Assembly: GCA_041652815.1 (NCBI GenBank)
Contig: JBAZGN010000002.1
Location: 302,261-366,260 of the forward strand
DNA: 64,000 bases
Direction of reading: 5' to 3'
Source of the DNA: Candidatus Omnitrophota bacterium
Lineage (GTDB): Bacteria > Omnitrophota > Gorgyraeia > Duberdicusellales > 4484-171
This document shows, piece by piece, positions 33,223 to 55,772 of this stretch (position 1 is the first letter of the stretch; each line of letters opens with the position of its first letter). The translations under genes and the position numbers were made by a program. The notes below the pieces were generated by a model. It had not been told where the DNA came from, did no database searches, and saw only the letters and a program-made list of their open reading frames with translations.

Positions 33223-33337
33223 AAATGATGTATAACGCACGAATGAGCACGAAATGAGGGACGTTCCCCAAGGGGACACCCTGGTGTTGTATAGCATATT
33301 GGGATACGATGAGTAAGTATAGCATATATATAAAGAC

Positions 33338-33702
33338 GTTCGGCTGACCCTTGGTTCGTTTTATACAAGTCTCTCAAAAACATCCTTCCGTTGCTTTTGG
33401 TATGAAATATGCACCGCCCGCTTGGGCGGGCTTGGTGGTTGGCGCATTCACCGCTCGCCCCGCCTTGGGCGGGGACTTCGCTGCCTCGCTCGCTGGGCCG
33501 CTCGCTCTCTCAAGCAGTCTTGCCTCGCGCTCCCTGCGCCGCTAGGGCGGCTCCGGGGCTTGGCAAGCCTGCGGAACCACGTTTGTCCCGCGGTCGTAGC
33601 GTTTTGATACCCTTCCTCAGGCACCCGCTTTCGTCGGGCTTTCGCGCTTCGCGCAAATTTTTTCCTTTTCAATAAATCCTTTTCGGCTGGCGGCGGGGGA
33701 AA
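33338..33702 (+). repeat. GC-rich long repeat A, copy A1 (inverted copy at 50698..51053)
   Basis: ~360 bp with near-identity to the reverse complement of 50698..51053 apart from a divergent ~50-bp middle; contains hairpins gcccgcttgggcgggc and ccccgccttgggcgggg; starts at core cgttcggctg. Confidence 0.85.
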
Positions 33703-34180
33703 GGGGGGTAAAGCCCTCCTCAAGCAGGCGCCATCGTCGGGGTATTGTTTTGCCTTAGTAAAGGCAAAACACCCCGCCAAACCATCCCCCGACCACCCAG
33801 CTGTCGCAGCCGGGCGGCTTCAATCGCCTTTGGCGATTTTCGCTCCACCCTTTATGCGCCAGCTTTCCCCTCAGCGGAAAAAGAAACCTGTATATTTGGT
33901 TTTTTTCAAATCCCCACCCACCCAACAGTCACAGTCGGGCGGCTCCAATCTGTCGATTTCCGCATCGCCCTTTATGTGCCTGTTTTCCCCCTAAGAAATA
34001 ATACGCTATAACCTGGATTCTCCTTTCATTTCTTTTCATTCTACATCCCACCCAGCGCTTCGCGCTTCCTCATTTGTCAAGGATACTACGGCTTCCTTCC
34101 CCGAAGGGGCAGGACTTCCGTTCCTCCTTGACAAACGAGCCTCTCTGGATGTTTTAAATAAAAAAATGAAAGGAGGTGTT
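33703..34180 (+). repeat. GC-rich structured non-coding block with two tandem ~85-bp units (U1 33786..33878, U2 33911..33993) and long hairpin ttgtcaagga...tccttgacaa
   Basis: Units cccacccaRcaGtcRcagYcgggcggctYcaatc...ccctttatgYgcc; hairpin gttttgccttagtaaaggcaaaac; no credible ORF; GC far above window average. Confidence 0.7.
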
Positions 34181-34182
34181 CA

Positions 34183-34434
34183 ATGGAAAAGAAAATTTAT
34201 AAGTTAGAAAAGAGGCCTAGTAAATACAAAGTTCCTACTGCCCATTCCTCAAAGTCCTTATATGACCTTCAGATGTATCTCAATAAAAGCCGTGTGCGAA
34301 AGGGTTTGAATGCCCGCAAGAAACTGGTTAAAAAGTACAAAAGGCCAAATGGTTTTCTTCCAATGCTCAAATTGCTCGCCTTCTATTATGCCCTTGTCGG
34401 GCTAGTTATCCTATTGGCAAAACTAGGTATTTAG
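34183..34434 (+). CDS. small basic protein with C-terminal TM helix
   Basis: RBS aaaggagg; 83 aa; C-terminal LKLLAFYYALVGLVILLAKL. Confidence 0.45.
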   Translation: MEKKIYKLEKRPSKYKVPTAHSSKSLYDLQMYLNKSRVRKGLNARKKLVKKYKRPNGFLPMLKLLAFYYALVGLVILLAKLGI

Positions 34435-34472
34435 ATATTGCACCCTGTATTCAAAATGTGGTATAATACAAT

Positions 34473-35519
34473 ATGGCTGAGTTTGTTGTATCGGATAACT
34501 CCTATTCCAACCTGCTAAAGCAGATAAAACACGAAATAACCGACGGCCTAGTCCGCGCCCAAAAGGCTTATGAACGGGAAAAAGTTATTTCTTACTGGAA
34601 AATTGGTCAAGCCATAGATAAACACCTGTTGGAGAATAAGGACAGAGCCGATTACGGCAAGCAGTTGTATAGCCGGCTTTCGCGCGATTTAAATATCGGC
34701 GAACGCTTGCTTTACCAGATGTCGCAATTCTATTATGCCTACCCGGATTTAAAGCCTTCGCAAAACCTTAAATGGTCTCATTACCGGTTGCTGACTTCGG
34801 TTAAAGACGAAGAGCAGAGGGCTATACTCGAAACCAAAGCCGCCGACGACAACTGGTCGAAGCGCGCCTTGGAAACTTTCATTAAGGACGACAAGGAAAA
34901 AAGCGTTAAAGCCGCCAAGCCAAAATCTACAAAACTATCTTTTTTTAAGGGCCAGCTTTATACTTACGGTATATTTAAAGACGCTTGTGCTGAAAATGTT
35001 CTTATAGACTGCGGGTTTAATGTTTACTATGAATCAGATATGACAAAGTTCCCCGCTACCTCATTAAAGTCATCGGGCGGATCCGCCTTTGGCAGAAGCG
35101 GCAATCTGGTAGAAACTGTTAAAACCGGCGACACTTACAAGCTGGTCAAGTCCAACGCCACCCTTAAGCATTTATACACCTATAAAGCCTACGTTAAAAA
35201 AATCGTGGACGGCGATACCCTTTGGGTAACCATAGATTGCGGGTTTAAAATCTGGGTCAGTCAGAAGCTCCGCTTGCGCGGCATAGACACGCCTGGCATT
35301 ACAACCAAAGAGGGCATGAAATCTTACAAGTTCGTTTGCAATGAACTTAAAGGCTTACCGTTTGTTATAATAAAAAGCCACGGCCGGGATAAATACGACC
35401 GTTACCTTACGGATATATTCTACTTAAAGGACGGAAAAGACCCCCTAGCGGTCTTAGAGAAAGGTGAATTCTTAAACCAAAGGCTTTTAGACGCAAGCTT
35501 AGCAGATAGAGAGTTTTAG
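34473..35519 (+). CDS. DUF1016_N (YhcG-like N-terminal domain) fused to staphylococcal-nuclease-like (SNase/thermonuclease) domain
   Basis: N-terminal YWKIGQAI...RADYGKQLYSRLSRDL...WSHYRLL matches YhcG DUF1016_N; C-terminal IVDGDTLWV...LRLRGIDTPG...DKYDRYL matches SNase (DGDT, RLxGIDTPE, DKYGR) with the catalytic Glu position replaced by Gly. Confidence 0.65.
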   Translation: MAEFVVSDNSYSNLLKQIKHEITDGLVRAQKAYEREKVISYWKIGQAIDKHLLENKDRADYGKQLYSRLSRDLNIGERLLYQMSQFYYAYPDLKPSQNLKWSHYRLLTSVKDEEQRAILETKAADDNWSKRALETFIKDDKEKSVKAAKPKSTKLSFFKGQLYTYGIFKDACAENVLIDCGFNVYYESDMTKFPATSLKSSGGSAFGRSGNLVETVKTGDTYKLVKSNATLKHLYTYKAYVKKIVDGDTLWVTIDCGFKIWVSQKLRLRGIDTPGITTKEGMKSYKFVCNELKGLPFVIIKSHGRDKYDRYLTDIFYLKDGKDPLAVLEKGEFLNQRLLDASLADREF

Positions 35520-35585
35520 ATTATGTTAAGCTGGAATCCTTCGAAGCTTTAGAGCAGTAGGACGAAAGCCTTGCCGAGAGTTAAA

Positions 35586-35605
35586 CTACGTAGTATACTA
35601 CGTAG
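35586..35605. promoter_or_regulatory. perfect 20-bp palindrome CTACGTAGTATACTACGTAG (candidate operator overlapping -10-like TATACT)
   Basis: Exact self-complementary 20-mer 18 bp upstream of the AbrB-like small ORF. Confidence 0.6.
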
Positions 35606-35622
35606 TAATGGGGGTGTAGATA

Positions 35623-35799
35623 ATGGCACAACATAAGAAAAAAGGCGGCGTTACCCGAAAAATCACCAAGACTGGCGATTATACTTATTACGTAACCATT
35701 CCCGCGGAATATATCGAGGAGTTGGGCTGGCGCTGTAAACAAAAGGTATTGGTTAAACTTTTAGGGAAAAAAGTGGTTATTGAGGATTGGAGGGGATAG
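35623..35799 (+). CDS. small AbrB/MazE-like (swapped-hairpin) DNA-binding protein, 58 aa (below track threshold)
   Basis: MAQHKKKGGVTRKITKTGDYTYYVTIPAEYIEELGWRCKQKVLVKLLGKKVVIEDWRG; TIP..I..LG...G..V pattern of SpoVT/AbrB domain. Confidence 0.5.
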   Translation: MAQHKKKGGVTRKITKTGDYTYYVTIPAEYIEELGWRCKQKVLVKLLGKKVVIEDWRG

Positions 35800-35886
35800 A
35801 ATTGCCCTTCTCACTCAGGGTTGTTTGGATCATTTAAATGGTGTATAATCAACTAATATTTCCTAATTTTAAGGAGAAGATAGCTA

Positions 35887-37341
35887 ATGTTTGAGCAAAC
35901 CTTTAAGAATATTGACGATATCCTGCATAAAGATGCCGGGTGCAGTAGCGAGCTGGATTATGTGGAGCAGACCTCATGGATTCTCTTCTTGAAATATCTT
36001 GATGATCTCGAGAAAGATAAAAAAACAGCGGCAAAGCTATCAGGCAAGGCTCACGCGGGTATTATTAGCCCGGAATATCGCTGGGAAGTCTGGGCAGTCC
36101 CTAAAGATAATGACGGCAAGATTGATCATCACAAGGCGCTTACCGGAGATGATTTAAAAGATTTTGTCGACCACAAGTTATTTCCCTACCTAAAAAAGTT
36201 TAAAACCAATGCCGAGAGCGCCGATACTATCGAGTATAAAATTGGCGAGATTTTTAGCGAGCTTAAAAATAGAATCCAGAGTGGTTATAATCTGCGAGAG
36301 GTTATTAATTTAATAGATGAACTGCGTTTCCGTTCCCATGCCGAAAAACATGAGATGTCTCATCTATATGAGGACAAGATCAAGAATATGGGGAATGCGG
36401 GTAGAAACGGCGGGGAATATTACACGCCCCGTCCGCTTATCAAAACCATCGTGAAAGTTGTCGCTCCGGAAATCGGAAGCAAGATTTATGATGGCGCAGT
36501 AGGTTCGGCAGGGTTTTTGTGCGAAGCATTTGAATATCTTAAGACCAAAAAAAATCTAACCACAAAAGACGCCCAGACCCTACAGAAAAACACCTTTTAC
36601 GGCAAAGAAAAGAAATCGCTCGCCTACATCATCGGTACGATGAACATGATTTTGCATGGCATCGAGGCGCCGAATATCGTGCATACCAATACGCTTGCGG
36701 AAAACCTCGCCGATATTCAAGAAAAAGATCGTTATGATATTGTTCTCGCCAATCCGCCATTTGGTGGCAAGGAACGTGCCGAGGTGCAACAGAATTTCCC
36801 TATCAAGACCGGTGAAACGGCGTTTTTATTCTTACAGCATTTCATCAAGATTCTGAAAGCTGGCGGTCAGGCTGGCGTAGTGATTAAAAACACTTTCCTC
36901 TCCAACGCGGACAATGCTTCAGTCAGTCTTCGCAAACTTCTGCTGGAAAGCTGTAATCTGCATGCAGTCCTTGATCTGCCCGGCGGTACATTTACTGGCG
37001 CAGGTGTTAAGACTGTCGTACTTTTCTTTGAGAAAGGCGTTCCGACGCGTAAGGTTTGGTTTTATCAGCTAAATCTTGACCGCAACCTTGGCAAGACTAA
37101 CCCGCTGAATGAAAATGATCTCGCTGATTTCTTAATGCTTCAAAAGACCAAAGCGGACTCAGAGAATTCTTGGTCTGTTGATATTGTCGATGTAGATAAG
37201 GAAACAAGCGATCTATCGGTCAAGAATCCGCATAGAAGAAATGAAATAACTATTCGCGCCCCTCAAATAATTCTAGATGAAATGCAGACGCTGGACATGG
37301 AAAGCGCGAAGATATTGAAGGGCATAAAAGAGCTGTTATGA
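35887..37341 (+). CDS. hsdM: type I restriction-modification system methyltransferase subunit
   Basis: N6-adenine MTase motifs: NPPFG (ANPPFGGKERAEV), motif I GSAGFL; HsdM_N-like N-terminus. Confidence 0.85.
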   Translation: MFEQTFKNIDDILHKDAGCSSELDYVEQTSWILFLKYLDDLEKDKKTAAKLSGKAHAGIISPEYRWEVWAVPKDNDGKIDHHKALTGDDLKDFVDHKLFPYLKKFKTNAESADTIEYKIGEIFSELKNRIQSGYNLREVINLIDELRFRSHAEKHEMSHLYEDKIKNMGNAGRNGGEYYTPRPLIKTIVKVVAPEIGSKIYDGAVGSAGFLCEAFEYLKTKKNLTTKDAQTLQKNTFYGKEKKSLAYIIGTMNMILHGIEAPNIVHTNTLAENLADIQEKDRYDIVLANPPFGGKERAEVQQNFPIKTGETAFLFLQHFIKILKAGGQAGVVIKNTFLSNADNASVSLRKLLLESCNLHAVLDLPGGTFTGAGVKTVVLFFEKGVPTRKVWFYQLNLDRNLGKTNPLNENDLADFLMLQKTKADSENSWSVDIVDVDKETSDLSVKNPHRRNEITIRAPQIILDEMQTLDMESAKILKGIKELL

Positions 37342-38489
37342 GTAATCGATGGGAAAATAAAACTCTTGGCGAAGTCTGTGAGATTTTGGATAACAGACGC
37401 AAGCCAATCACAAAACGAGATCGGACTGCCGGTGAGTATCCTTACTACGGAGCTACTGGTATTTTGGATTATGTGCATGATTATATTTTTGATGAAAAGT
37501 TGATTTTGATTGGTGAGGATGGGGCAAAATGGGGAGCTGGTGAGAATACGGCATTTATTGCAGAAGGAAAATATTGGGTGAATAATCACGCCCATGTTAT
37601 CAGGCCTGATAGAAAAATTGTTTTAGATAATTGGTTAGTTTATTTCTTAAACTTTAGCGATTTATCCAAGTACGTTACAGGTTTAACAGTCCCCAAGCTC
37701 AATCAAGCGAAGATGCGAGAAATTTCACTGCCTCTTCCACCGATTTCCGAGCAAAAGAAAATGCTTCATGTAATTGATGAGATTTTCGAAAAGACAACTA
37801 AGGCAAAAGAAAACGCTGAAAAGAATCTGCAAAATGCTCGAGAGCTTTTTGAGTCGTACTTGCAAAGCATTTTTGCCAATCCGGGCGATGATTGGGAAGA
37901 AAAAAGTGTTGGTGAGATTGCTGATATTGAATATGGATTCACTGATAAAGCAAAATACGCGGGTGATTATCGATACATCAGGATCACGGATATTGATAAG
38001 AACGGAAATTTAGTAAAAGATGGCAAGGTTTTTGTTGATGCTTCCGAAGAGGCTAAAAAATATTTATTAAAGGATGGTGATCTGTTAATGGTAAGGACCG
38101 GCGCAACCTATGCGAAAGTATTGCTATACAAAGACATTGAAAAATCAATTTTTGCTTCTTATTTGATCCGGATCAAGTTTAGACAGGATATTGTAAACAA
38201 GCTTTACTGGTATTTCTCCAAATCCAGAATTTATTGGGAACAAGCAAACAAGCTTTCTTCTGGCTCTGCTCAGCCACAGTTTAACGGCGGAGTATTAAAA
38301 GAGCTTGTGTTTTATTTTCCGAGATCCTTTGAGAAACAAGGACAGATTGTCACCAAGCTTGATGCTCTTTCCACGGAGATTAAAAAACTCGAGATTGTAT
38401 ATCAGCAGAAGCTAATTGATCTTGAAGAACTTAAGAAACCGATATTACATAAGGCCTTTAACGGTGAACTCGCAGGAGTATGCTCATGA
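37338..38489 (+). CDS. hsdS: type I restriction-modification system specificity subunit
   Basis: Two target-recognition domains separated by conserved coiled-coil repeats; overlaps hsdM stop and hsdR start. Confidence 0.8.
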   Translation: MSNRWENKTLGEVCEILDNRRKPITKRDRTAGEYPYYGATGILDYVHDYIFDEKLILIGEDGAKWGAGENTAFIAEGKYWVNNHAHVIRPDRKIVLDNWLVYFLNFSDLSKYVTGLTVPKLNQAKMREISLPLPPISEQKKMLHVIDEIFEKTTKAKENAEKNLQNARELFESYLQSIFANPGDDWEEKSVGEIADIEYGFTDKAKYAGDYRYIRITDIDKNGNLVKDGKVFVDASEEAKKYLLKDGDLLMVRTGATYAKVLLYKDIEKSIFASYLIRIKFRQDIVNKLYWYFSKSRIYWEQANKLSSGSAQPQFNGGVLKELVFYFPRSFEKQGQIVTKLDALSTEIKKLEIVYQQKLIDLEELKKPILHKAFNGELAGVCS

Positions 38490-40792
38490 ATGAAGCCGAA
38501 ACCAGAGCAGAATATATTGATCCTAAGCTAAAAGCCAGCGGCTGGGGTATCGTGGAAGGCACCAAGGTTCTGCGTGAATACAAAATCACTGCCGGTAAAA
38601 TCCAGACTGGTGGAGGTCGCGCCAAGCCGTTGATTGCTGACTATGTTCTGGTGTATCGCGGTCGTAAGCTTGCCATCATTGAAGCCAAGAGTGATGAGCT
38701 TGAAGTTGGCGAAGGCGTTGCTCAAGCCAAGAACTATGCCGAAATGATGCATCTTGATACGACTTATGCCAGTAACGGCAAAGAGATTTACCAAATCTGT
38801 ATGAAAACCGGGAAGGAAGGCTTGGTTGCTTCTTTCCCGTCACCGGAAGAATTATGGAATAGAACTTTTGAGACGCAAAACCAATGGCGGGATAAGTTTA
38901 ATCAAGTCCCGTTTGAAGATGTCGGCGGTACAAAAGAAGTGCGCTATTATCAGGAAATCGCGGTTAATAACGCTATGGCCGCCATTGCCGAAGATAAACC
39001 GCGCATATTGCTTACCTTGGCCACAGGCACCGGTAAAACCTTCATCGCTTTTCAGATAGCGTGGAAACTTTATCATACCCGCTGGAACTTGAAGCGCGAT
39101 GGAAGCCGTAGACCTCGTATTTTATTTCTTGCCGATAGAAATATTCTTGCTGATCAGGCATTCAACGCCTTTTCAACATTCCCCGAGGACGCGCTCGTTC
39201 GAATTAACCCCAAAGAAATCAGCAAAAAAGGCAGTGTTCCGACTAACGGCAGTATTTTCTTTACCATCTTTCAGACCTTTATGAGCGGTAAGGATAAAGA
39301 CGGTAAGCCTGCTCCATACTTTGGCGAATATCCTGTAGATTATTTTGATTTTATCATTATTGATGAATGTCATCGCGGCGGGGCGAATGACGAAAGCAAT
39401 TGGCGAGGTATTCTGGAATATTTCTCTCCTGCTGTACAGCTCGGCCTTACCGCAACGCCTAAACGTAAAGATAACGTTGATACTTATCGCTATTTTGGTG
39501 ATCCGGTTTATGTATATTCGCTTAAAGAAGGTATCAACGATGGATTTTTAACACCGTTTAAAATTAAGCGAATCAAGACGACTATTGATGATTATGTTTA
39601 TACTTCGGACGATAAGATTATAGAAGGTGAAATTGAAGAGGGGAGAATATACACAGAGCCGGATTTCAATAGAATTATAGAGATTAAAGAGCGTGAATCT
39701 AAGCGAGCGCAGATATTCCTTTCTGAAATTAATCAAAAAGAGAAAACTATCGTTTTTTGTGCTACCCAAGATCATGCGCTCGCAGTACGCGATCTGGTTA
39801 ATCAATATAAAGATAGCAAGGAACCCAATTATTGTGTGCGCGTTACCGCTAACGATGGTTTTCTTGGTGAACAGTATTTGAGAGAATTTCAGGATAACGA
39901 GAAAACCATCCCAACGATACTAACTACCTCACAAAAATTATCTACGGGCGTAGATGCGCGTAATATTAGAAATATTATACTTATGCGGCCGATTAATTCT
40001 ATAATTGAGTTTAAACAAATTATTGGACGTGGGACACGGTTATTTGAAGGGAAAGATTATTTTACTATTTATGATTTCGTTGATGCGTATCACCATTTTT
40101 TAGATCCTACTTGGGATGGTGAACCAATAGACGAAACAAAGGAGAAGGAGCCAAAGAAGCCGAAAGAGCCACCTGTTCCTCCAGAACCACCTGAGCCGCC
40201 CAAGAAGAAGATTAAGATTAAGCTGCGCGATGGTAAGGAGAGAGAAATACAGCATATGATTGCGACAACTTTCTTAAGTGCTGATGGTAGGCCAATGTCT
40301 GCAGAAGAATTCTTAAAGAGCATCTTTGGGGCATTGCCTGAATTCTTCAAAAATGAAGACGAGTTGCGTAAAATTTGGTCTAACCCGATTACCCGGAGGG
40401 CGTTGCTTGAAAAACTATTTAATGCTGGCTACGGTAAAGATGAACTAGCTGCTTTGCAGAAATTAATTAATGCTGAGAAGAGCGATCTATTTGATGTCCT
40501 CGAATACATTTCTTTCGCTATAAAACCAATCACGCGAGAAGAACGTGTTGCACAGGCACAGACAAAGATTTTTCAAGGGTTGGATAATAAACAAAAGGAG
40601 TTTCTGGAGTTTGTGCTTTCTAAATATATTGAAACTGGTGTGGAGGAGCTTGATCAGGAAAAACTGCCAGACCTTCTGACTCTGAAATATCAGGCAATTC
40701 GTGACGCAGAGGAAATATTGGGCGGGGTTGATAGTATCCGTGCCACTTTTATTGATTTCCAGAAGTATTTGTATGAGAAAGTGGTAGTTTGA
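38486..40792 (+). CDS. hsdR: type I restriction endonuclease subunit R (short, ~769 aa)
   Basis: N-terminal MNEAETRAEYIDPKL nuclease domain, helicase motifs ATGTGKT and DECH (IIIDECHRG), SAT/QxxGR motifs; proline-rich insert EPPVPPEPPEPP. Confidence 0.8.
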   Translation: MNEAETRAEYIDPKLKASGWGIVEGTKVLREYKITAGKIQTGGGRAKPLIADYVLVYRGRKLAIIEAKSDELEVGEGVAQAKNYAEMMHLDTTYASNGKEIYQICMKTGKEGLVASFPSPEELWNRTFETQNQWRDKFNQVPFEDVGGTKEVRYYQEIAVNNAMAAIAEDKPRILLTLATGTGKTFIAFQIAWKLYHTRWNLKRDGSRRPRILFLADRNILADQAFNAFSTFPEDALVRINPKEISKKGSVPTNGSIFFTIFQTFMSGKDKDGKPAPYFGEYPVDYFDFIIIDECHRGGANDESNWRGILEYFSPAVQLGLTATPKRKDNVDTYRYFGDPVYVYSLKEGINDGFLTPFKIKRIKTTIDDYVYTSDDKIIEGEIEEGRIYTEPDFNRIIEIKERESKRAQIFLSEINQKEKTIVFCATQDHALAVRDLVNQYKDSKEPNYCVRVTANDGFLGEQYLREFQDNEKTIPTILTTSQKLSTGVDARNIRNIILMRPINSIIEFKQIIGRGTRLFEGKDYFTIYDFVDAYHHFLDPTWDGEPIDETKEKEPKKPKEPPVPPEPPEPPKKKIKIKLRDGKEREIQHMIATTFLSADGRPMSAEEFLKSIFGALPEFFKNEDELRKIWSNPITRRALLEKLFNAGYGKDELAALQKLINAEKSDLFDVLEYISFAIKPITREERVAQAQTKIFQGLDNKQKEFLEFVLSKYIETGVEELDQEKLPDLLTLKYQAIRDAEEILGGVDSIRATFIDFQKYLYEKVVV

Positions 40793-40953
40793 TAATTCTA
40801 ATTCGGTGGGCACGCACGTAATTATTTACAATTAGGTCTCCAGAATTTCAGAATTTTTCAGATGTTTTGGCGATAGAGATTATCGAAAACATCGAGGTTG
40901 GGTTGGAGAGCTTTAAGAGGATTATTGAGAAATTAAATAAGTAGGCACCTTAA

Positions 40954-43577: not shown

Positions 43578-43652
43578 TAAATTGTGAGTTTTCTTGCCAC
43601 CCTAAGCGTGAGAAGGTATAATAATACTGGTTGTAGGGGGGGGGTGAAATTT

Positions 43653-43910: not shown

Positions 43911-43911
43911 T

Positions 43912-45012: not shown

Positions 45013-45024
45013 AGGAGGATATAA

Positions 45025-47644: not shown

Positions 47645-48014
47645 AATATTGATAGCAGACGATGAAAAAGAAATTTCTGAAATGATTGGAACGTCACTGC
47701 GCCGCTCGGGATATGAAGTTTTTTCTGCTTTAGATGGGAAAACAGCGATAGAAACTGCGAAATGCGAAAACCCCGACGTAATTTTACTTGATCTGCGTTT
47801 TCCTAAACCCGGCCTGGATGGTATAGAAATATTAACAGCAATCAGGGAATTTAATAAAGAGGTAAAAGTTATTCTTACTTCTGGATTAGGCGCCGAGGCT
47901 AAAGAAATAGAGCAGGCGCAAGGATTAGGTATCAGTAAATTTCTGCCTAAGCCGTTAGATATCGCACAATTAAAAGAAACCCTCAGGGAAATGGTCGGTA
48001 ATAACACAGCTTAA
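47619..48014 (+). CDS. single-domain CheY-like response regulator receiver protein
   Basis: ILIADDE, ILLDLRFP, LTSGLG, K in FLPKP. Confidence 0.7.
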   Translation: MAKRVTMSKILIADDEKEISEMIGTSLRRSGYEVFSALDGKTAIETAKCENPDVILLDLRFPKPGLDGIEILTAIREFNKEVKVILTSGLGAEAKEIEQAQGLGISKFLPKPLDIAQLKETLREMVGNNTA

Positions 48015-48027
48015 TAGCGGTTTTAAA

Positions 48028-48312
48028 ATGTTATTTTTCCGCAAGAAAAAAGATGAAAAGTTAGAACAAGTAAAGCAAGAAATTTTCTCAAAAATTAAGC
48101 CCATATTATCTAAGATGCTTGAGGTAGATGAGGAAAAAATTACCCCAAAAGCCAGAATAGCCGAAGATTTAGGTGCAGACTCATTAGATTCAGTAGATAT
48201 TACAATAAAATTAGAAGAAGTATTTAATATTGAAATACTTGATGAAGACGTAGAAAAAATGAAAACCGTTGACGATATTCTTACTTATTTAGCACACAAT
48301 AAAGAAGGTTAA
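48028..48312 (+). CDS. acyl carrier protein-like (second copy)
   Basis: EDLGADSLDSVDI motif. Confidence 0.6.
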   Translation: MLFFRKKKDEKLEQVKQEIFSKIKPILSKMLEVDEEKITPKARIAEDLGADSLDSVDITIKLEEVFNIEILDEDVEKMKTVDDILTYLAHNKEG

Positions 48313-48314
48313 CT

Positions 48315-48739
48315 ATGTCCACCTGGCGAGATTTATTCCACACTTTAGCAAATAAGCAGAATTTGATAAGTATAGGCACAAAGGCAACCAAAGAAGCCCT
48401 TGAGGATTGCTTAAAAAAAGATGTGTCAAAAGAATTAAAAGAGAAAATACTTGATAATGCTGCAAATGGAAAATATTTTAGCCTATCTTTATCAGCGCAA
48501 TATTTCCGAAAACGAAAAACGTGCTTCTGTGGTTTTCAAGCAATTCGCCTCAAACAAGGGATAACTTTAACAAGAGCTGGCAATTTCTAATTCCTTCAGT
48601 TATGGAAAGAGGCGTGATCCTGGGCGTTTTATTGCAATACGGCATGATCGAAAGTGATGATATAAATTTAAAAATAACGGCGCAGGGGTATAACTTCTTG
48701 CAATACATAGGGTTAATTCCTTACCCTTCCCAGGTATAG
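48315..48739 (+). pseudogene. possible frameshifted gene (two overlapping ORFs 48315..48590 and 48521..48739)
   Basis: Consecutive same-strand ORFs overlapping by 70 nt in different frames; could be an authentic frameshift, a programmed shift or an assembly error. Confidence 0.3.
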
Positions 48740-48754
48740 ACGTATTAGTTTTAG

Positions 48755-49615
48755 ATGATGGAAGATAATTTTATGGAGATAATTCTTAATATAATATCGG
48801 GCGGTCTTTCTGGTGCGTTGTTAGTATGGCTTTTGCGTAATTGGATTTCTGAGCGCATAAAGGAAAGTATAAAGCACGAGTATGCTCAAAGGCTTGAAGC
48901 ATATAAGGCCGAGCTTAACTCCAATATGCAGTCAGCATTACACGAACATCAGTTGTATCAACTTCGAACATCCCTCTTTTTTGAACATCAACGCTTGGCG
49001 TTTGCTTCTATTCTTAGCCAGATTGCTGAAACTAAACAAAAGTGGTTTGATGTTGGGTATGATTCAGAGTTAGGATGGCAAGAACAAGCACCGGTACCTA
49101 CTGGCGAATACGACAAACTTAAAAAGTCCTATTATGATCATCAACTTTTTTTAGATCAGGATTGCATTTTCGCTCTTGACCTAGTGCTTGAGGCCATGCG
49201 CGATTCATTCCCAGTTCAAGATGGCGATGGCACTTTGCATCATAGAGATTGTGAAGAGCCTTACGAGCGGTTGGTATTTTTGCAAGAACGAGTTGCTCTA
49301 CTTTTTCAAGAAAAAATAGGGTTCAGGGTGTCGCAAGAAATGAAGATTGAACTCGCGCTTTTAGGGGCAATTAGATTGCTAAATCGTTATCATTTTAAAG
49401 ATATTGATTTGCCGGTTAAAGGATCTCTGAAATTAACTGCTGATGACAAAGCTTTTGATGCTGTAATCAAGGCGGGCAACAATAAGGTGGAATTGATTTC
49501 AAAGCTAACTGAATTTAGGAATCATCTGGAGAAGGAGGGTTTCTTTCATGATGCATGGGAAAAGGCAACCCGATGTCTTAACCTCCTTTCTGCCGAAAAG
49601 AAAACGCCCGCGTGA
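48755..49615 (+). CDS. hypothetical protein with N-terminal TM helix
   Basis: IILNIISGGLSGALLVWLL anchor; no family recognised. Confidence 0.4.
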   Translation: MMEDNFMEIILNIISGGLSGALLVWLLRNWISERIKESIKHEYAQRLEAYKAELNSNMQSALHEHQLYQLRTSLFFEHQRLAFASILSQIAETKQKWFDVGYDSELGWQEQAPVPTGEYDKLKKSYYDHQLFLDQDCIFALDLVLEAMRDSFPVQDGDGTLHHRDCEEPYERLVFLQERVALLFQEKIGFRVSQEMKIELALLGAIRLLNRYHFKDIDLPVKGSLKLTADDKAFDAVIKAGNNKVELISKLTEFRNHLEKEGFFHDAWEKATRCLNLLSAEKKTPA

Positions 49616-49710
49616 AATTTGAAGCGGTTGGCAAAGAGGTACGAGACTCGTTTGCCCCATTTTATTTAATATAAAACATAGATGATGGTGGTTGGGTAGA
49701 AGGAGATTAG

Positions 49711-50559
49711 ATGTCAGAAAAATCCGATTTAACTGTCCAAGAAGTCTTGGGTAATACAGCTTTGACCGATAAAATCCAAGTTTTATATCACTATACTAGC
49801 ATGGATTCATTAGAGAAAATAATGAAAAATGAGTGCATGCATTTTTCTCATATCTCATGGATGAATGACTATAGCGAATATGATTGGGGTTTAAATATGT
49901 TTCAAGAAAAATTGTTAAAAATGGTCAGCGACAAAACAAAGGAAATGGAAGAGAGTTTTAAGAAATTTATTAATATTATAAAAAAGGATAAGGATAAAGA
50001 TAATCCTTGTGTGGGATCGTTCACGGCTTTAAAAGAATCATTATCTCAATGGCGAGGCTATGGAGATAAGGGTGGTGGTATATGCATAGGTTTTGACGCA
50101 GGCCTTATGAAACGAATTTGCAAAGAAAATAATTTTATTATTGGAGATGTATTGTATGGTGATTCCTTTGATGGGTCTTGTTCTAATTTTCTTGCGAAAA
50201 TTTCTGGTTTTATTTCAGCATATACCAATGATCCAGCAGATGCTTTAGCCAGAGTCGGTATGCTTATTTCTCTTTTAGCTTGTTTTGTTAAACATGAAGG
50301 TTTTCAAGAAGAAAAAGAAATTAGAATAGCGATACCCTTCCCAGAAAAGTTACCCAACAAGCTTAAAGGTAAATTATATGTGCCTTATTTTTTGTTTGAT
50401 TTCAAAGAAAATTTTTCATCAATTTTTAAAGAAATTTGGGTTGGTCCTGCAGCTAACCAAGAACTCTTAGCTAAGTCTGTTTCGCTGCTTATAAATGAGT
50501 GTGGTTTGGATGATTCTTGTAAAATCTATAAATCCAATATACCATACAGAATAATATAA
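49711..50559 (+). CDS. DUF2971-family protein
   Basis: N-terminal LYHYTSMDSLEKIMKNE...SHISWMNDYSE pattern typical of DUF2971. Confidence 0.55.
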   Translation: MSEKSDLTVQEVLGNTALTDKIQVLYHYTSMDSLEKIMKNECMHFSHISWMNDYSEYDWGLNMFQEKLLKMVSDKTKEMEESFKKFINIIKKDKDKDNPCVGSFTALKESLSQWRGYGDKGGGICIGFDAGLMKRICKENNFIIGDVLYGDSFDGSCSNFLAKISGFISAYTNDPADALARVGMLISLLACFVKHEGFQEEKEIRIAIPFPEKLPNKLKGKLYVPYFLFDFKENFSSIFKEIWVGPAANQELLAKSVSLLINECGLDDSCKIYKSNIPYRII

Positions 50560-50697
50560 TTACAAAATAATATTTAGGAATCAATAGTTCACTTTTCTCG
50601 GCAATCGCAGTCGTCCTGTTTCAATCCTTCGGATTTCCACAACGGACTTTGTGCGCTTGCCTTCACCCACATAAAGAAAGAGGAATAACACCTTAAT

Positions 50698-51053
50698 ATT
50701 TCCCCCGCCGCCAGCCGAAAAGGATTTATTGAAAAGGGAAAAAATTGCGCGAAGCGCAAAAGCCTGACGAAAGCGGGTGCCTTGAGGAAGGGTATCAAAA
50801 CGCTACGACCGCGGGATAAACGTGGTTCCGCAGGCTTGCCGAGCCCCGGAGCCGCCCTAGCGGCGCAGGGAGCGCGAGGCAAGACTGCTTGAGAGAGCGA
50901 GCGGCCCAGCGAGCGAGGCAGTGAGCCGAGCGGCAGCGAAGGCGAACGGAGACTCCACCACCCACCAAGCCCGCCCCAGCGGGCGGTGCATATTTCATAC
51001 CAAAAGCAACGGAAGGATGTTTTTGAGAGACTTGTATAAAACGAACCAAGGGT
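50698..51053 (-). repeat. GC-rich long repeat A, copy A2 (inverted relative to A1)
   Basis: Reverse complement matches 33338..33702; spurious ORFs in both copies translate to the same peptides (MVRFIQVSQKHPSVAFGMKYAPP...). Confidence 0.85.
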
Positions 51054-51230
51054 CAACCGAATGTGCGTATGCAGACTTTTTTTCCGGAATTTGAATTTTG
51101 CATAGATTTTTCCTGTCTAAAATATTTGCGCGCGCTTCAGAAAATATAAAATTAAATGGTTCAAAAAAGGCAAAAGAAATTCTTTTTTCCAGATGGGCCG
51201 AACCCACCGGCGGGGCGATTTTGATGTTTT
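51054..51230 (-). repeat. 177-bp repeat B, copy B1 (inverted copy of 55587..55764; contains miaB promoter + first 16 codons in reverse orientation)
   Basis: Reverse complement identical or nearly so to 55587..55764; abuts A2 at shared core cattcggttg. Confidence 0.85.
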
Positions 51231-51299
51231 CCGTCTTGCTCGCCTGCGCGGCTCGCAATCCGCACGCCAATTCCCGAATTGTCGTTAAAAATCAGAGGA

Positions 51300-51385
51300 G
51301 GAGAATTACCCCCACCCACCCAAAATTGTCTCACTGCTCGGGCTCCTGCGCCAGAGGCGCATCCGCTCCCTGCGCGACGAGCCAA
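51300..51385 (+). repeat. third copy (U3) of the ~85-bp GC-rich unit seen at 33786..33993
   Basis: cccccacccacccaaaattgtctcactgctcgggctcc ... ttccctcccctta parallels ccccacccacccaacagtcacagtcgggcggctcc ... ttttccccctaag. Confidence 0.55.
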
Positions 51386-51444
51386 TTCCCTCCCCTTAAT
51401 AATTTACCTTGACACATAGTGTAAAGTGCTGTAAAGTAACGACA

Positions 51445-51627
51445 ATGGAGAAAAGATATAATCTTAGCGAAGCGGCTAAAGAATTGGGTTTAACTCGTCA
51501 GGGCCTTTATTATTGGATAAAGAAGGGTTGGGCTACGCCTAAGCGAGATTATAAGGGGTATCCGGTTTTCACTGAAATTGATTTAAAAAAGATTAAAGAG
51601 TGGCGTGATAAGTTAGAGAATTTCTAA
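51445..51627 (+). CDS. small HTH DNA-binding protein, excisionase/AlpA/MerR-like (candidate recombination directionality factor)
   Basis: MEKRYNLSEAAKELGLTRQGLYYWIKKG helix-turn-helix; promoter-like cttgac...taaagt upstream; lies in the recombinase cassette. Confidence 0.5.
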   Translation: MEKRYNLSEAAKELGLTRQGLYYWIKKGWATPKRDYKGYPVFTEIDLKKIKEWRDKLENF

Positions 51628-53456
51628 TGGAAAATAAAGAAGCAGTTAGATATATTAACGATTTAATTCAAAATATCCTTCCTGGGGTGGCAATCGATAT
51701 CCATCAGCAAAACCATTTTAACTATTCTTTTAACGTCAAAAATAACGGAGAATCATGTAATATCATTTTCGGGCGCGATGATATGGATGATTTTGATAAA
51801 GCTCTGCAAAGTGATCATAACTCTGATTATTATCGTGGATTAGAGGGGAGTATTAAATTTAAAATTTATATCTCATTAGGAAAAGCTGGTCTTATCCCTA
51901 AATTTCCGATTGCTAAACAAATTTTGGATGAAAAGCGAGATTGGCATAATGATGTTATGGTCCATTTTGTTCGAGAAGATTGGTTTTATAAGGTTTTAGA
52001 GGTCGGACTTAAAGACCTAAAAATGTTTCTGGAAGATATTATAGAAAAACATGGTCCTCAATCAGAGATTGAAAATGAACTGGAACATATCGAAGGATTA
52101 TTGTCCTATTACAATAAACATAAAAGTTTTGAGGAAAGAGGAGCCTCTGACGTTAGTCTGGGTTATCTGAAAGCGGCAGCTATTGCCGTGGTTCTTAAAA
52201 AAGAAAAAGAGTGTCAAGAAATAAAAATTCCACGCGTTTTGCAAACTAAAAATAAAGAAATCTATGATATTGTTGATGAACTAAGAAAAGATTTTTTTCT
52301 ACAGACAAAAATGCCAGATTGCGTGTATGATTATGCTGAAAATATTAATTTAGGTCATGGGAGGAAAGAAGATGAATTTCAGATGGTCAATATCCCTTGC
52401 GGGCCTTTAGCAAAACAGACATGCGATTTGAAAACAAAAATTGATCAGGATTTTTCTAAGAAAAATATTTTTATTGATATCCCATATACTAACTATGAAG
52501 ATTGTGAATTAGCTTTAAGAGAATTATTGAAAGAATTTGGGTTTAACCCGGTCGTCGCTAAAGACAGGTTAACTTGCAATGCAGTCCTTTGTAAGGTTTG
52601 CAAATTAGTAAAAATATGTAGATTTGGAATTGTAGACATATCTTCTGCAAGTAATAGTGTTGCTTATGAATATGGATTAATGCATGGATTAGGCATGAAA
52701 GTTTGTCTTTTGTTACGTACAGAGAGTGAAAAGTTTACTGATATAGAAGGATTGGAACATATCTCTTACTCGGGGTTAACTAGCCTTAAGATTGCAGTTT
52801 CAAGGTGGATTCTAGATAATATTGATGACATTAATCGTTCTTTAGTGGAAGAATTTATTTCAAAAAATGAGAGCTTACTCAAAGAAAATGGGGATACACC
52901 TTTGCAACTCCTATTACCTAAATCCATTATTGAATCGTCAAGAGAAGTAGGGTTGCAACCTGTTGACTCAAAAATTCTTGAAATATTGGGGGACATTATT
53001 ATTGCAAAGGAAGATGTGGGAATGATTGTAGAAACCATAGCAGAAGTTATAAAAAATGCAGAAAAATATAAAATTTCTCAAGAGGATGTTTTTGAATCAT
53101 TAGATGTGTTGGAATCAAGATATTTTTTGAAAATTTTAAAACATCTTGGTGATCCAAAAACCTATCATCTTAGTATTTCGATATCCGGATTTCTTAAGTA
53201 TTGTGAATTATATTTAAGAAACTTTGGAGAAATAGTAAAAAGTATAGCCTATGAGATATTAAAAAATAATATTATGTCCAGCAAGGAGATATCTCAAAAA
53301 GTTAATTGTAAGCCAATAGTAGCATATGCTTTATTCAAGTTTTTAGAGGAAAATGACTATATAATGGCTTCAGAACATGCGATAACGCAAGATATTGTAA
53401 TTTACGACCTTAAAGGCGATGGTAAAAGATGGTTCAATGATGTTCTCAATTCTTAA
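51627..53456 (+). CDS. hypothetical 609-aa protein with central nucleoside 2-deoxyribosyltransferase-like (NDT/TIR-like Rossmann) domain
   Basis: FIDIPY...FGIVDISSASNSVAYEYGLMHGLGMKVCLL resembles the NDT motif D..S.G...E.GyA.A.GKPV with conserved Glu; N- and C-terminal domains unrecognised. Confidence 0.45.
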   Translation: MENKEAVRYINDLIQNILPGVAIDIHQQNHFNYSFNVKNNGESCNIIFGRDDMDDFDKALQSDHNSDYYRGLEGSIKFKIYISLGKAGLIPKFPIAKQILDEKRDWHNDVMVHFVREDWFYKVLEVGLKDLKMFLEDIIEKHGPQSEIENELEHIEGLLSYYNKHKSFEERGASDVSLGYLKAAAIAVVLKKEKECQEIKIPRVLQTKNKEIYDIVDELRKDFFLQTKMPDCVYDYAENINLGHGRKEDEFQMVNIPCGPLAKQTCDLKTKIDQDFSKKNIFIDIPYTNYEDCELALRELLKEFGFNPVVAKDRLTCNAVLCKVCKLVKICRFGIVDISSASNSVAYEYGLMHGLGMKVCLLLRTESEKFTDIEGLEHISYSGLTSLKIAVSRWILDNIDDINRSLVEEFISKNESLLKENGDTPLQLLLPKSIIESSREVGLQPVDSKILEILGDIIIAKEDVGMIVETIAEVIKNAEKYKISQEDVFESLDVLESRYFLKILKHLGDPKTYHLSISISGFLKYCELYLRNFGEIVKSIAYEILKNNIMSSKEISQKVNCKPIVAYALFKFLEENDYIMASEHAITQDIVIYDLKGDGKRWFNDVLNS

Positions 53457-53471
53457 TATCAGGCAATGAAT

Positions 53472-53546
53472 ATGTTTATAGGGATTTATATTAGAGTCTC
53501 AACCGAAGACCAAGCGTAGGAGAATTATTCTCTTGAAGTGCAATGA
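53472..53546 (+). pseudogene. fossil fragment of a serine recombinase N-terminus
   Basis: MFIGIYIRVSTEDQA*..ENYSLEVQ* parallels the intact recombinase MKVVFYTRVSTEDQAKEGYSLEVQ at nucleotide level. Confidence 0.6.
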
Positions 53547-53610
53547 CAATATTTAATCTATTATGAAAAATTAAAGCAGAGTCGTAGGAATTGATTGAGG
53601 AGTGAAATAG

Positions 53611-54126
53611 ATGAAAAAGAAACTGTGGGATGAAAAAAAATATACTGATATTTTAAAAGAAGTTGGTGAGGGGCGTTATAAAATCTTCAATCCAGATGAC
53701 CCTTTTATATCGTATTTGTCGCCTGGATTATTTGATAAGTATGAATATAAATTTAACTGTGTTTGTCTTGCTACATCCACAACTATTGCTACTGCGACAG
53801 TGGATTACAAGTGCGAAGGGTTTCTTATACCGAAACATTCTCAGGTAGTGTTATGGCGCAATTTTCGCTATTGTACTCATGACGGATCACCTCACCTTAA
53901 TGCAGATGATAATATTATATTTCCTGACCAATCTGGCGATGTATGGAAAGTTTCTAAAACAGATGCCTACGATCATTATGTCGCAATTGCTTCATGGGCA
54001 GGACTTCAGACTATCACATCGGTCTATCATTTACCCGATCAACCTTGTGGTTTGTATCCGCAGTATATTGAGAAGGGCGCAAACGTGCCAGTGAAATTTG
54101 TTAAAGTTGAAAGCGATAAACCATGA
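53611..54126 (+). CDS. hypothetical 171-aa protein
   Basis: RBS gaggagtg; no family recognised; immediately upstream of and overlapping the recombinase start. Confidence 0.4.
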   Translation: MKKKLWDEKKYTDILKEVGEGRYKIFNPDDPFISYLSPGLFDKYEYKFNCVCLATSTTIATATVDYKCEGFLIPKHSQVVLWRNFRYCTHDGSPHLNADDNIIFPDQSGDVWKVSKTDAYDHYVAIASWAGLQTITSVYHLPDQPCGLYPQYIEKGANVPVKFVKVESDKP

Positions 54127-55772
54127 AAGTAGTTTTTTACACTCGCGTATCAACCGAAGATCAAGCTAAAGAAGGCTATTCGCTTGAGGTCCAAAGGGAA
54201 TATCTTGAATCTTTTGCTGAACGTGAAGGTTTTGAAATCTTCAAAGTTTACTGTGATGATGGTATAAGCGCTTATTCAACACGCAGACCTGCGTTACAGG
54301 GGTTACTTGCTGACGCGAAGGCAAAGCGGTTTGAGTTAGTGCTGGTTTATAAAATAGACAGGTTTAGCCGGAATCTTAAAGACTTACTGATTTTGGTTGA
54401 TGAGCTTTTGGGCTATGGCGTGGGGTTTAAGTCTGCCACAGAGCCGTTTGATTCTACAACGTCAGCCGGAAAGTTGATGTTTCAGCAATTGGGTAGCTTT
54501 GCGGAGTTCGAGCGCAATAGGTTAGCGGAGCGTGTATTCCCCGGCATGATTAAAGGTGTTCAGGCTGGGAATTGGCAGGGCGCTCGGTATGCGCCATTTG
54601 GGTATCACTATAACAAGCCGGAAAAGCTTCTTGAGGTGGTTGATGATGAGGCAAAGGTTGTCCGGTTGATTTATCAGATGTATCTTGAAGGCAGAAGCAC
54701 GCGGGATATTGTTAATTATTTGAATCGCAATGGTTTTAAATCCCGCGCCGGTTTAAAGTTTTACGATAAGTTTATCGGTGATGTTTTGAAGAACCGCATT
54801 TATACCGGCCAACTTATTTGGAATAAAAAGCATTACGACAAGAACCAGAAAACCAAAAAGCATTTCAAATATGTCAAAAATGACCCTGCCAAAATTATTA
54901 TTTCCCAAGGCCGTCACCAGCCGATTATTTCCTTGGAAGATTTTGAGAAAGCTCAAAATCTTCTTGCCAATAAAAAACGCACTTGGCGGCCAAGAGTAAG
55001 AAATCAGGAATATCTTTTATCTGGCTTGTTAAGTTGTGCCAAGTGTAATTCAAATTATTGCGGCAACCTTTCCATATCTAATCATCATACCGGTATCAAG
55101 AAGCGCTGGTATCGTTGTTCCGGTCCGCTGTCCCACGGCATTAGGTGCAAGAACCGCGCCGTCAAAGCCGCCGAAGTTGAAGCCTTGACTGACAGTGTTG
55201 TTGCTCGTTTAGTGGAAAGTGAGGGGTTTAAAGACAGCCGATGGACGACCGTGACTGGCACAAATGGGAGTTTTTCCGCGTTTTTTGACCAAAACCCTGC
55301 CAGTCTTCGCCAAGAGCTTGTTGAAAACAAGCAAAAACAAGGAAAGCTTACTGACGCTTACCTGGATAATTTGCTTGGCGAAGACGTTTTTCATGCTAAG
55401 ATGGATGAGCTTCGTTTGCGCGAAGATGAGCTGAAGAAAAACCTTGCCGGCATTGAACTTTTGGCGCTTGAGCGTGAGCGCTCCGAGGGGTATCTGAACA
55501 GGGTTAAGGACTTTCTTGACGGTTACGACGAAGGGCTTACCAAGGTAGGTTTTGAACACAAAAGGCAGATGGCCGGACTGCTTTTTAAAAACATCAAAAT
55601 CGCCCCGCCGGTGGGTTCGGCCCATCTGGAAAAAAGAATTTCTTTTGCCTTTTTTGAACCATTTAATTTTATATTTTCTGAAGCGCGCGCAAATATTTTA
55701 GACAGGAAAAATCTATGCAAAATTCAAATTCCGGAAAAAAAGTCTGCATACGCACATTCGGTTGTCAAATGA
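54123..55772 (+). CDS. large serine recombinase (resolvase/invertase catalytic domain + recombinase domain + zinc ribbon)
   Basis: YTRVSTEDQ with catalytic Ser, LVVYKIDRFSRN motif, C-rich zinc-ribbon region (CAKCNSNYCG...CSGP...C); final ~60 codons lie inside repeat B2. Confidence 0.85.
   Translation: MKVVFYTRVSTEDQAKEGYSLEVQREYLESFAEREGFEIFKVYCDDGISAYSTRRPALQGLLADAKAKRFELVLVYKIDRFSRNLKDLLILVDELLGYGVGFKSATEPFDSTTSAGKLMFQQLGSFAEFERNRLAERVFPGMIKGVQAGNWQGARYAPFGYHYNKPEKLLEVVDDEAKVVRLIYQMYLEGRSTRDIVNYLNRNGFKSRAGLKFYDKFIGDVLKNRIYTGQLIWNKKHYDKNQKTKKHFKYVKNDPAKIIISQGRHQPIISLEDFEKAQNLLANKKRTWRPRVRNQEYLLSGLLSCAKCNSNYCGNLSISNHHTGIKKRWYRCSGPLSHGIRCKNRAVKAAEVEALTDSVVARLVESEGFKDSRWTTVTGTNGSFSAFFDQNPASLRQELVENKQKQGKLTDAYLDNLLGEDVFHAKMDELRLREDELKKNLAGIELLALERERSEGYLNRVKDFLDGYDEGLTKVGFEHKRQMAGLLFKNIKIAPPVGSAHLEKRISFAFFEPFNFIFSEARANILDRKNLCKIQIPEKKSAYAHSVVK
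55587..55764 (+). repeat. 177-bp repeat B, copy B2 (recombinase 3' end + miaB promoter and first 16 codons)
   Basis: Inverted copy of 51054..51230; ends at core cattcggttg inside the miaB start. Confidence 0.85.

Follow-up and report, generated by a model that had tools for sequence, protein, structure and literature searches.

A probable serine-integrase island in miaB of an Omnitrophota bacterium, with an inverted second copy of its attachment site

Introduction

Serine-integrase islands and prophages (phiC31, Bxb1, A118, TP901-1 and SPbeta SprA) are bounded by hybrid flanking sites, exchange DNA at a non-palindromic dinucleotide, carry the recombinase gene beside the site and have their target inside a conserved gene. 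Here we describe a locus that resembles them in all these points and in the domain architecture of its large serine recombinase (LSR). It lies in a stretch of 64,000 nucleotides from Candidatus Omnitrophota bacterium (Gorgyraeia; Duberdicusellales; 4484-171; NCBI GenBank assembly GCA_041652815.1, contig JBAZGN010000002.1, positions 302,261 to 366,260 of the forward strand), which as a whole is called the window below and whose first letter is position 1. Positions 33347-55762 very probably form a serine-integrase island of about 22.4 kb inserted in miaB, with the left junction J1 as attL, the right junction J3 as attR and a third junction inside the island, J2, as an intact attP. The locus differs from the known serine-integrase islands in that its site is predicted to lie inside the recombinase open reading frame (ORF), so that integration would change both the C-terminus and the stop codon of the enzyme; in that the P arm mimics the B arm of the host by re-encoding the start of the target; and in that the element, once integrated, still contains a second copy of the site in inverted orientation. 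We know of no obvious counterpart of such a conserved inverted second site among characterised serine integrases. Our literature search, which was incomplete and leaves absence unproven, returned no serine integrase with attP inside the integrase gene, no LSR targeting miaB and no inverted internal attP. The novelty of the design lies in this putative attP within an ORF and in the conserved inverted second site.

Parts of this design have parallels outside the serine integrases. In Mx8 (intP/attP) and in SSV-type elements, attP lies within the integrase gene and integration alters the integrase C-terminus. The position of the site within the gene is alike here, but those enzymes are tyrosine recombinases with another site architecture, and their targets are not restored via an overlapping frame. 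In the Hin and Gin systems and in the yeast 2-micron circle, the recombinase gene lies between inverted repeats that hold its sites, the 2-micron circle having two unique segments and 599-bp repeats. The invertases Hin and Gin are small serine recombinases dependent on an enhancer and Fis; Flp belongs to the tyrosine class. The present locus shares with the Hin/Gin type the inverted sites bracketing the recombinase gene, inversion being only a candidate activity here. In its recombinase the locus differs from a serine DNA invertase switch of the Hin/Gin/Cin/Pin kind: instead of a recombinase of about 190 aa with a C-terminal helix-turn-helix (HTH), we found one of 549 aa with LSR domains.

The staphylococcal cassette chromosome (SCC) elements, SCCmec among them, are inserted at rlmH by Ccr recombinases. 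CcrB is the nearest curated family of the LSR studied here, and in both cases insertion occurs at one end of a conserved RNA-modification gene, whose reading frame is kept. The SCC locus is a hotspot of defence-rich, recombinase-less cassettes (PMC11470126), a likeness that is seen here too. In contrast to SCC, the LSR scores only 223.8 bits against the CcrB cut-off of 900 (and 154.4 against 900 for CcrC), so it is not a Ccr; its target is the 5' end of miaB and not the 3' end of rlmH, and an inverted rather than a direct site stands between the modules. Identity with Ccr/SCC was rejected on the score and the target. The dusA islands, as presented in the sections of the source covered here, target the 5' end of a tRNA-modification gene, for which they substitute island-borne sequence (Farrugia et al. 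2015, PMC4482086). According to the same sections the island supplies a new 5' end, as here, where the right arm gives an ATG and 16 codons in frame; their integrases are tyrosine integrases, whereas a serine recombinase is present here. Neither an overlap between the integrase ORF and the target start nor an inverted internal site is noted in those sections of PMC4482086.

Results

Repeat boundaries of the island share a TG dinucleotide

A repeat search of the window found two inverted-repeat systems, A1/A2 and B1/B2. A1 (33336-33702) pairs with A2 (50699-51064) in three blocks with 93-98% complementarity, B1 pairs with B2 over 177 nt with 100% complementarity, and A2 and B1 overlap by 11 nt. 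Along the plus strand, the order is X (the displaced native 5' end of miaB), A1, M, inverted A2, inverted B1, N, B2 and the rest of miaB (Table 1). J2 thereby divides the island into a cargo module, M, between inverted A arms and a recombinase module, N, between inverted B arms. The junctions read tataaagaCGTTCGGCTG followed by accc at J1 (octamer at 33339-33346), gcacaCATTCGGTTG followed by accc at J2 on the minus strand (octamer at 51061-51054) and gcacaCATTCGGTTG followed by tcaaatg at J3 (octamer at 55757-55764). A preliminary description of this DNA had reported that all three repeat boundaries end in TTCGGYTG and had read them as the half-site pairs X/A, B/A and B/miaB; the sequences are exactly those it gave and bear out the pairing. 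Counted over both strands, the window contains 13 such octamers where 3.8 were expected, or about 1e-4 per position, and arithmetic from this count puts the chance that two further independent repeat edges fall exactly on it at the order of 1e-8. Moreover, the junction form TT[CT]GGNTG followed by ACCCTTGG... is present in more than 100 unrelated contigs. These two figures speak strongly against the view that the shared octamer is just the chance end of homology.

The octamer spells the codons of the MiaB motif T-F-G-C, present in both X and B, a motif which we take to include the first cluster-binding cysteine of the MiaB N-terminal domain. At J1, the displaced native start MSKYSIYIKTFGC (ATG at 33309) runs through ATG AGT AAG TAT AGC ATA TAT ATA AAG ACG TTC GGC, the codons of MSKYSIYIKTFG, up to the first two nucleotides, TG, of the Cys codon, and is closed by a TGA made of this TG and the first base of A. 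At J3, B2 holds an element-borne miaB start, MQNSNSGKKVCIRTFG plus TG, which reads ATG CAA ... ACA TTC GGT TG and continues outside the arm as T CAA ATG, that is MQNSNSGKKVCIRTFGC followed by QMN. The closest MiaB relative, P0123, seemingly unreplaced, starts MLKIYIKTFGCQMN. Directly before TG, J1 has C where J2 and J3 have T, a C/T pattern found again in L151/L126, and X and B differ further left too, while the right-hand partner changes directly after TG at all three junctions. Because X and B differ just before TG and the partner changes right after it, the exchange is confined to this dinucleotide. We infer a crossover with a staggered cut at the non-palindromic TG, as expected of a serine recombinase. 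The preliminary description had proposed a short 8-bp crossover core. Its crossover sites stand, but the octamer as a core does not: its sixth base differs between J1 and J2/J3, and six of its bases are shared through the coding of TFGC.

The recombinase gene reads through the right arm into miaB

The LSR matches the Pfam families PF00239 (E 5.7e-38), PF07508 (1.3e-23) and PF13408 (3.3e-09), and the PHROG integrase family phrog_95 at 2e-126. Its best matches in the PDB are the TP901-1 integrase catalytic domain and SPbeta SprA. R8, the catalytic S10 and D79-R80-x-x-R83 (the DRFSR motif) are invariant across 26 homologues. The locus thus has the features of a serine integrase, namely a catalytic domain with its serine, recombinase and zinc-ribbon domains, a shared central dinucleotide and direct attL/attR half-sites. 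That the boundaries are crossover sites of a serine recombinase, as previously proposed, is in accordance with the position of the gene (Resolvase, Recombinase and Zn_ribbon_recom domains), which ends 8 bp beyond J3, and with relatives that adjoin miaB as described below.

The LSR ORF spans all of B2, and its stop codon, TGA at 55770-55772, is made by the host codons CAA ATG A. More than 1000 LSR homologues were found. The best 120 are 58-71% identical, mostly 540-580 aa long (about 553 typically), and most of them cover the query nearly to its end, the B-encoded part included; homologues with 60-71% identity span 100% of the protein. The 26 aligned homologues mostly end in ...KKSTSxPS[AV][AV][KR] and a stop, which is TTC GGN TGY CAR ATG A in the LSR frame. 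Because the ORF and its homologues extend through B, this comparison assigns repeat B to the element and not to the host. About 50 nt thus encode the LSR C-terminus and, in the other frame, the replacement miaB start.

The resulting miaB is chimeric, with codons 1-16 from the element and the rest from the host, in frame. Its product passes NCBIfam TIGR01574 with 360.5 against a cut-off of 355.3. It is 393 aa long, matches only positions 2-370 of the 437-position MiaB model and appears to be without the C-terminal TRAM domain; MiaB relatives of the same phylum are likewise short (353-437 aa). The next ORF, with TPR and SPOR domains (56820-57632), overlaps the end of miaB, and miaA lies further downstream (57676-58611).

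Besides most of the LSR gene, module N contains a MerR/excisionase-like HTH protein of 60 aa (51445-51627), a 609-aa ORF (51627-53456) and a 171-aa ORF (53611-54126). The HTH protein has a weak excisionase match (phrog_66, E 1.3e-4) and is the sole candidate for a directionality factor. The 609-aa and 171-aa ORFs matched no family in Pfam, NCBIfam, PADLOC or PHROGs; one partial relative of the 609-aa protein occurs, in L018.

A putative second C-terminus in the A arm

The first 60 nt or so of A (33346-33405 on the plus strand, mirrored at 51054-50995 on the minus strand) extend the LSR frame as DPWFVLYKSLKNILPLLLV and a stop, and this tail ORF is intact in both A copies. We collected 74 distinct A arms; 40 of them, translated, read like DPWFVLYKLSKPFFFTAFQVELAAL and a stop, with variability highest at the third codon position (entropy 0.85/0.69/1.15). 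This pattern indicates that an LSR joined to A bears a conserved tail of about 25 aa which integration would remove, leaving ...SVVK and a stop in the window. Because the A-arm tail is conserved as coding sequence, the recombinase is predicted to have two C-termini, depending on the partner to which its gene is joined. The rest of A1 is GC-rich and non-coding, with hairpins, and the arm gave no sign of a global RNA structure (folding z-score -0.07 against shuffled sequence). Just inside A1, at 33787-33990, a GC-rich unit of about 120 nt is present twice in tandem, detected as repeat pairs 39 and 40 nt long with 80-82% identity. The simple element L168 shares the conserved stretch that connects A1 with this tandem (AAGCCCTCCTCAA...GGCAAAACACCCCGCC).

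Related loci and metagenome contigs

A genome scan with the LSR alignment, taking one genome per species, gave 80 loci, in Omnitrophota, Auribacterota, Elusimicrobiota, Margulisiibacteriota, WOR-1/Saganbacteria and metagenome-assembled genomes (MAGs) labelled Planctomycetia. In 62 of 79 loci, miaB directly follows the LSR gene, and 8 more leave no room for miaB. A metagenome scan for the A-arm pattern gave at least 119 stretches, with three types of sequence to the left of A. The first consists of diverse native miaB starts; among the matches listed these are, for example, MKKQVYIRTFGC, MKEDKKKIFIRSFGC, MKIYIKTFGC, MINKKIYIRTFGC and MNKKIYLKTWGC, and at their junctions with A the TG and the following A always yield TGA in the miaB frame. 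Judged from their sequences, such fusions of a native start with A represent the attL sites of many hosts. In the second type, A is preceded, as at J2, by a fragment of B alone, HTH and LSR being encoded on the other strand. In the third, a full LSR gene runs straight into A, the junction that excision or a tandem arrangement would produce. The junction of a full LSR with A in L081 is not an assembly error, the two repeat copies there being only 91% identical. L201 and L164 overlap to close a circle of about 17.8 kb with the order B1-N-B2-A1-M-A2, for which tandem copies are also possible; the N module of this circle is joined to miaB in L006. Viral contigs gave only two matches in the pattern scan, both unrelated.

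Because native starts, J2-type junctions and full-LSR junctions with A all occur, J1 can be read as attL, J3 as attR and B/A as the element's own site. The preliminary description had noted that parental-like and recombinant-like junctions coexist, which it took for site-specific exchange rather than homologous duplication. This holds with J2 as the putative intact attP beside attL and attR. Within about 22 nt of TG, the B arm and the host X arms have the same consensus, TCTACATCCGnACnTTCGGnTG, both encoding (V/I)YIRTFGC. Because of this shared consensus, the substrates and products of any exchange look alike.

The inverted internal site

J2 is a complete B/A site in inverted orientation. Integration in reverse orientation at the nearby CA of TGTCAAATG was ruled out, J2 being a pure B/A junction. 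An inverted B copy was found in 14 loci of the close clade, 156-208 nt long (mostly 176-178) and 92.7-100% identical (mostly 100%), and the A arm ACCCTTGGnnnnTTCTCTACAAG... comes next in 13 of them. It is also found in 12 loci of a distant clade whose LSRs are about 50% identical. In total, at least 26 loci have such copies, mostly 98-100% identical to B2. The whole layout, with X and A1, about 10 kb of cargo, inverted A2 and inverted B1, is present in Ga0272441_10005966 and Ga0307992_1000009 as well; most other contigs end 45-130 nt past B1, as expected if A is a two-copy repeat. In the distant relatives L035, L036, L038, L040, L044, L047, L053, L060 (Elusimicrobia), L030, L031, L034 and L039, about 2.1 kb with the LSR gene only lie between the inverted B copies, and most of these contigs start just 350-690 nt upstream of the LSR start (1.7 kb in L034). 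The crossover dinucleotides are inverted between J2 and J3 and between J1 and J2, so a serine recombinase could only invert N or M and could not excise them.

One explanation of J2 is that the LSR is mainly or additionally an invertase, N (with the recombinase gene inside, as in hin) and/or M flipping and thereby toggling the LSR C-terminus and transcription into miaB or the cargo. We regard this as unlikely. The inverted site by the LSR gene is conserved across phyla, the segment being reduced to the LSR gene in Elusimicrobia, and the B copies are close to identical. The nearest curated family, CcrB, is not known to need a strict directionality factor. Junctions of the kind that flipped isomers, or integration through the second site, would give do exist: a full LSR joined to an A2-type arm in L113, L184 and L112 (the last with 12 antisense ORFs), a native miaB start joined to an A2-type arm in L143 and L170, and B1 joined to a complete second miaB in L020. 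L081 robustly shows the opposite relative orientation of M and N. Against this, 11 of the 14 close loci extend past the LSR 3' end into recognisable DNA, and in every one of these the LSR reads into miaB, in none into A; 9 of 11 contigs agree in the polarity of their cargo. Moreover, the deviant junctions all pass through exact repeats longer than the assembler k-mers, so a misjoin is possible; exchange of attP with attR or attL is not a reaction of canonical serine integrases; and the same isomers would arise if RecA mediated the flipping across the repeats. In L020 (5624-6954 and 11471-11959) the recombinase module is flanked by two inverted, different miaB genes with a 480-nt repeat (77% identical), its HTH-side B copy being the one joined to the complete second miaB; the DNA may truly have rearranged in this way, or MEGAHIT may have made a chimera from two isomers or hosts. 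If J2 were functional, exchange between J2 and J3 would invert the recombinase cassette and exchange between J1 and J2 the cargo. Both would be possible because the B arm imitates the host arm, each exchange regenerating the same two site types. Such a combined integrase/invertase switch can be put forward only tentatively.

J2 could equally be without present function, as the relic of one ancient inverted duplication of attP (a head-to-head dimer, for example) that is harmless and kept alike by gene conversion. We think this doubtful as well. Two elements lacking J2 look complete, one with an LSR gene (L168) and one a 2-kb LSR-less mini-element with a single cargo gene (L093); no flipped isomer was found among the MAG loci; and the A copies have diverged (92-99.7% identity). 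A neutral leftover, however, would usually have decayed, whereas J2 is retained in clades of different phyla with LSRs only about 50% identical, its inner boundary is nearly constant in the close clade, and the tail ORF has stayed intact in both A copies.

That N is a separate transposon-like element, inserted beside an older island, is very improbable. Perfect 177-nt terminal inverted repeats do bracket the recombinase gene, and minimal versions consist of the LSR gene alone, but the dinucleotides at its two ends, read on the top strand as CA and TG, have opposite orientations, which rules out N as a transposon excisable by a serine recombinase; the outside of its left end is always the same A arm with the LSR tail ORF, and the full LSR does occur joined to A. 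That the pattern arose in assembly, or that homology left by an ordinary duplication and inversion ends there by chance, can be dismissed almost entirely: the source is a MAG, in which exact inverted repeats can misassemble, but A1 and A2 differ by substitutions and indels that make their placement unambiguous, the junctions recur in independent contigs from many samples and assemblers, the complete layout is present in two further contigs, and the probability by chance is as small as given above.

Cargo and the region upstream of miaB

M holds 11 long ORFs, all on the plus strand. They include a type I restriction-modification (R-M) system, hsdM/S/R (35887-40792), a DUF1016/PDC-S02 protein and a PDC-M36A-like protein as candidate defence genes, and a histidine kinase with two response regulators, an acyl carrier protein, a reductase and a DUF2971 protein. 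Related elements carry a Gabija-like pair, HerA with a nuclease, and an Eco57I-type R-M system. By these annotations, the cargo of the family consists mostly of anti-phage defence genes. The cargo of L081 (981-4034) contains an apparent diversity-generating retroelement (reverse transcriptase, bAvd and an Lcl_C target protein), an IS110 transposase and a HepT/MNT toxin pair.

The cargo ends in a hairpin, S, of about 65 nt (CTCGGCAATCGCAGTCGTCC...GGACTTTGTGCGCTTGCC), of which about 20 distinct copies were found in other loci, e.g., L002 (two), L008, L012, L029, L085, L086, L113, L115, L164, L204 and L205. Where the junction with inverted A is found nearby, it lies 274-559 nt from S (mostly 400-560). 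Compensatory changes occur in 6 of 20 pairs, and the G-U wobbles fit the cargo strand. S matched no Rfam family and had only a chance-level resemblance to CRISPR repeats; searched against Rfam, the window at the gathering thresholds and 50400-51500 with permissive settings gave only a chance-level CRISPR-DR9 hit (E 7.6); and no tRNA or tmRNA was found in the window. A known RNA was therefore rejected for both S and A, of which A1 folds no better than shuffled sequence.

Upstream of miaB, the closest relatives carry co-oriented defence islands without an LSR gene (GmrSD, type IIG and type III R-M, DarTG), some of which retain remnants of S and of inverted A. These recombinase-less islands lie directly upstream of miaB in L203/L204 (1-7623), L205 (572-7061) and L206 (1463-9895); DarT occurs there with a Macro-domain protein, and DUF1016 is among the genes. 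In L029, a direct B repeat accompanies what is left of a deleted LSR gene, a structure that indicates tandem accretion. Altogether, these sequences suggest that the hotspot upstream of miaB has been built by accretion and decay of such elements.

Other features of the window

The coordinates of the island's features are collected in Table 1. Elsewhere in the window and unrelated to the island is a cobalamin riboswitch (RF00174, 8746-8938 on the plus strand, 92.5 bits). In the host flank left of the island, a 142-nt direct repeat with 79% identity (30997-31138 and 32297-32438) is intergenic and lies upstream of ORFs starting at 31158 and 32461.

Table 1. Features of the putative island and its junctions in the window
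Feature	Positions	Strand	Basis
X, displaced native miaB 5' end	33309..33346	+	direct reading of the sequence
Crossover dinucleotide TG of J1 (putative attL)	33345..33346	+	X-specific C 33344 and G 33338 to the left; A from 33347
A1, left arm (P' arm)	33347..33702	+	repeat search, A-arm alignments
M, cargo segment	33703..50698	+	ORF and family searches
S, three-stem hairpin at the right end of the cargo, just inside A2	50597..50664	+	copies in other loci
A2, inverted A copy	50699..51053	-	repeat search
Crossover dinucleotide of J2 (B1/A2), TG on the minus strand	51054..51055	-	junction also kept in related loci
B1, inverted 100% identical copy of the last 59 LSR codons, containing the replacement miaB start	51054..51230	-	
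N, recombinase module between the B copies	51231..55587	+	
LSR, 549 aa	54123..55772	+	Pfam, homologue alignment, PHROGs
B2, right arm (P arm): LSR 3' end and, in the other frame, replacement miaB start	55588..55764	+	
Crossover dinucleotide TG of J3 (putative attR)	55763..55764	+	
Chimeric miaB	55715..56896	+	NCBIfam TIGR01574, Pfam

Discussion

The explanation we favour remains that of a serine-integrase island in miaB. According to this model, the LSR encoded at the right end of the island would insert it into codon 13 of miaB, the Cys of TFGC, cutting both sites at TG with a 2-nt stagger and swapping the partners. The native start X would be left stranded at J1, where TG and the first base of A would form a stop codon that ends its translation, and B2 would supply a new start codon and 16 codons, miaB thereby remaining intact at J3. 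The element's own site, B/A, would lie within the LSR gene. In the excised state the enzyme would end in the A-encoded tail of about 25 aa and, after integration, in ...SVVK with a stop codon taken from miaB. The excised form would be a circle with two inverted B/A sites, and the 60-aa HTH protein may assist excision.

Several points weigh against this model. The dyad symmetry around the core, which the preliminary description had proposed to look for, is weak. In attP, 8/14 positions around TG are symmetric (P about 0.01 at the pre-specified centre, an estimate), in the attB as reconstructed 5/14, and scanning gave no significance. B yielded no sigma-70-like promoter, and the idea that it supplies one was dropped. 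No empty site joining X directly to miaB was found for this host: the nearest MiaB relatives, of which the three closest with usable contigs (P0123, P0124 and P0125) were searched, all carry LSR-less defence islands upstream. Since B1 and B2 are identical over 177 nt in inverted orientation, the sequence alone does not verify which way N is placed in the assembly. The one-way logic of canonical attP, attB, attL and attR may not apply, since the B arm mimics the X arms. The model leaves J2 without an explained function, invertible modules, a second integration site and a relic being candidate roles that we hold with low confidence. Finally, recombination is deduced here from assembled sequences.

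This locus would represent a widespread family of LSR islands, found in Omnitrophota, Elusimicrobiota, Margulisiibacteriota, Saganbacteria/WOR-1 and Auribacterota, all targeting one codon of a nearly universal gene and carrying anti-phage defence cargo. The family would account for a defence-island hotspot upstream of miaB in these uncultured lineages. Its design appears compact, with the site in the recombinase ORF, 50 nt shared by two coding frames, and a tail and stop codon swapped by integration. For many natural pairs of site and enzyme, attP and attB can be predicted at base resolution, which makes them raw material for genome-engineering integrases. The inverted second site, if it has a true function, could reveal a new mode of regulation or rearrangement: flipping would then switch the LSR between short and tailed forms, along with transcription into miaB and the defence cargo, across several little-studied phyla.

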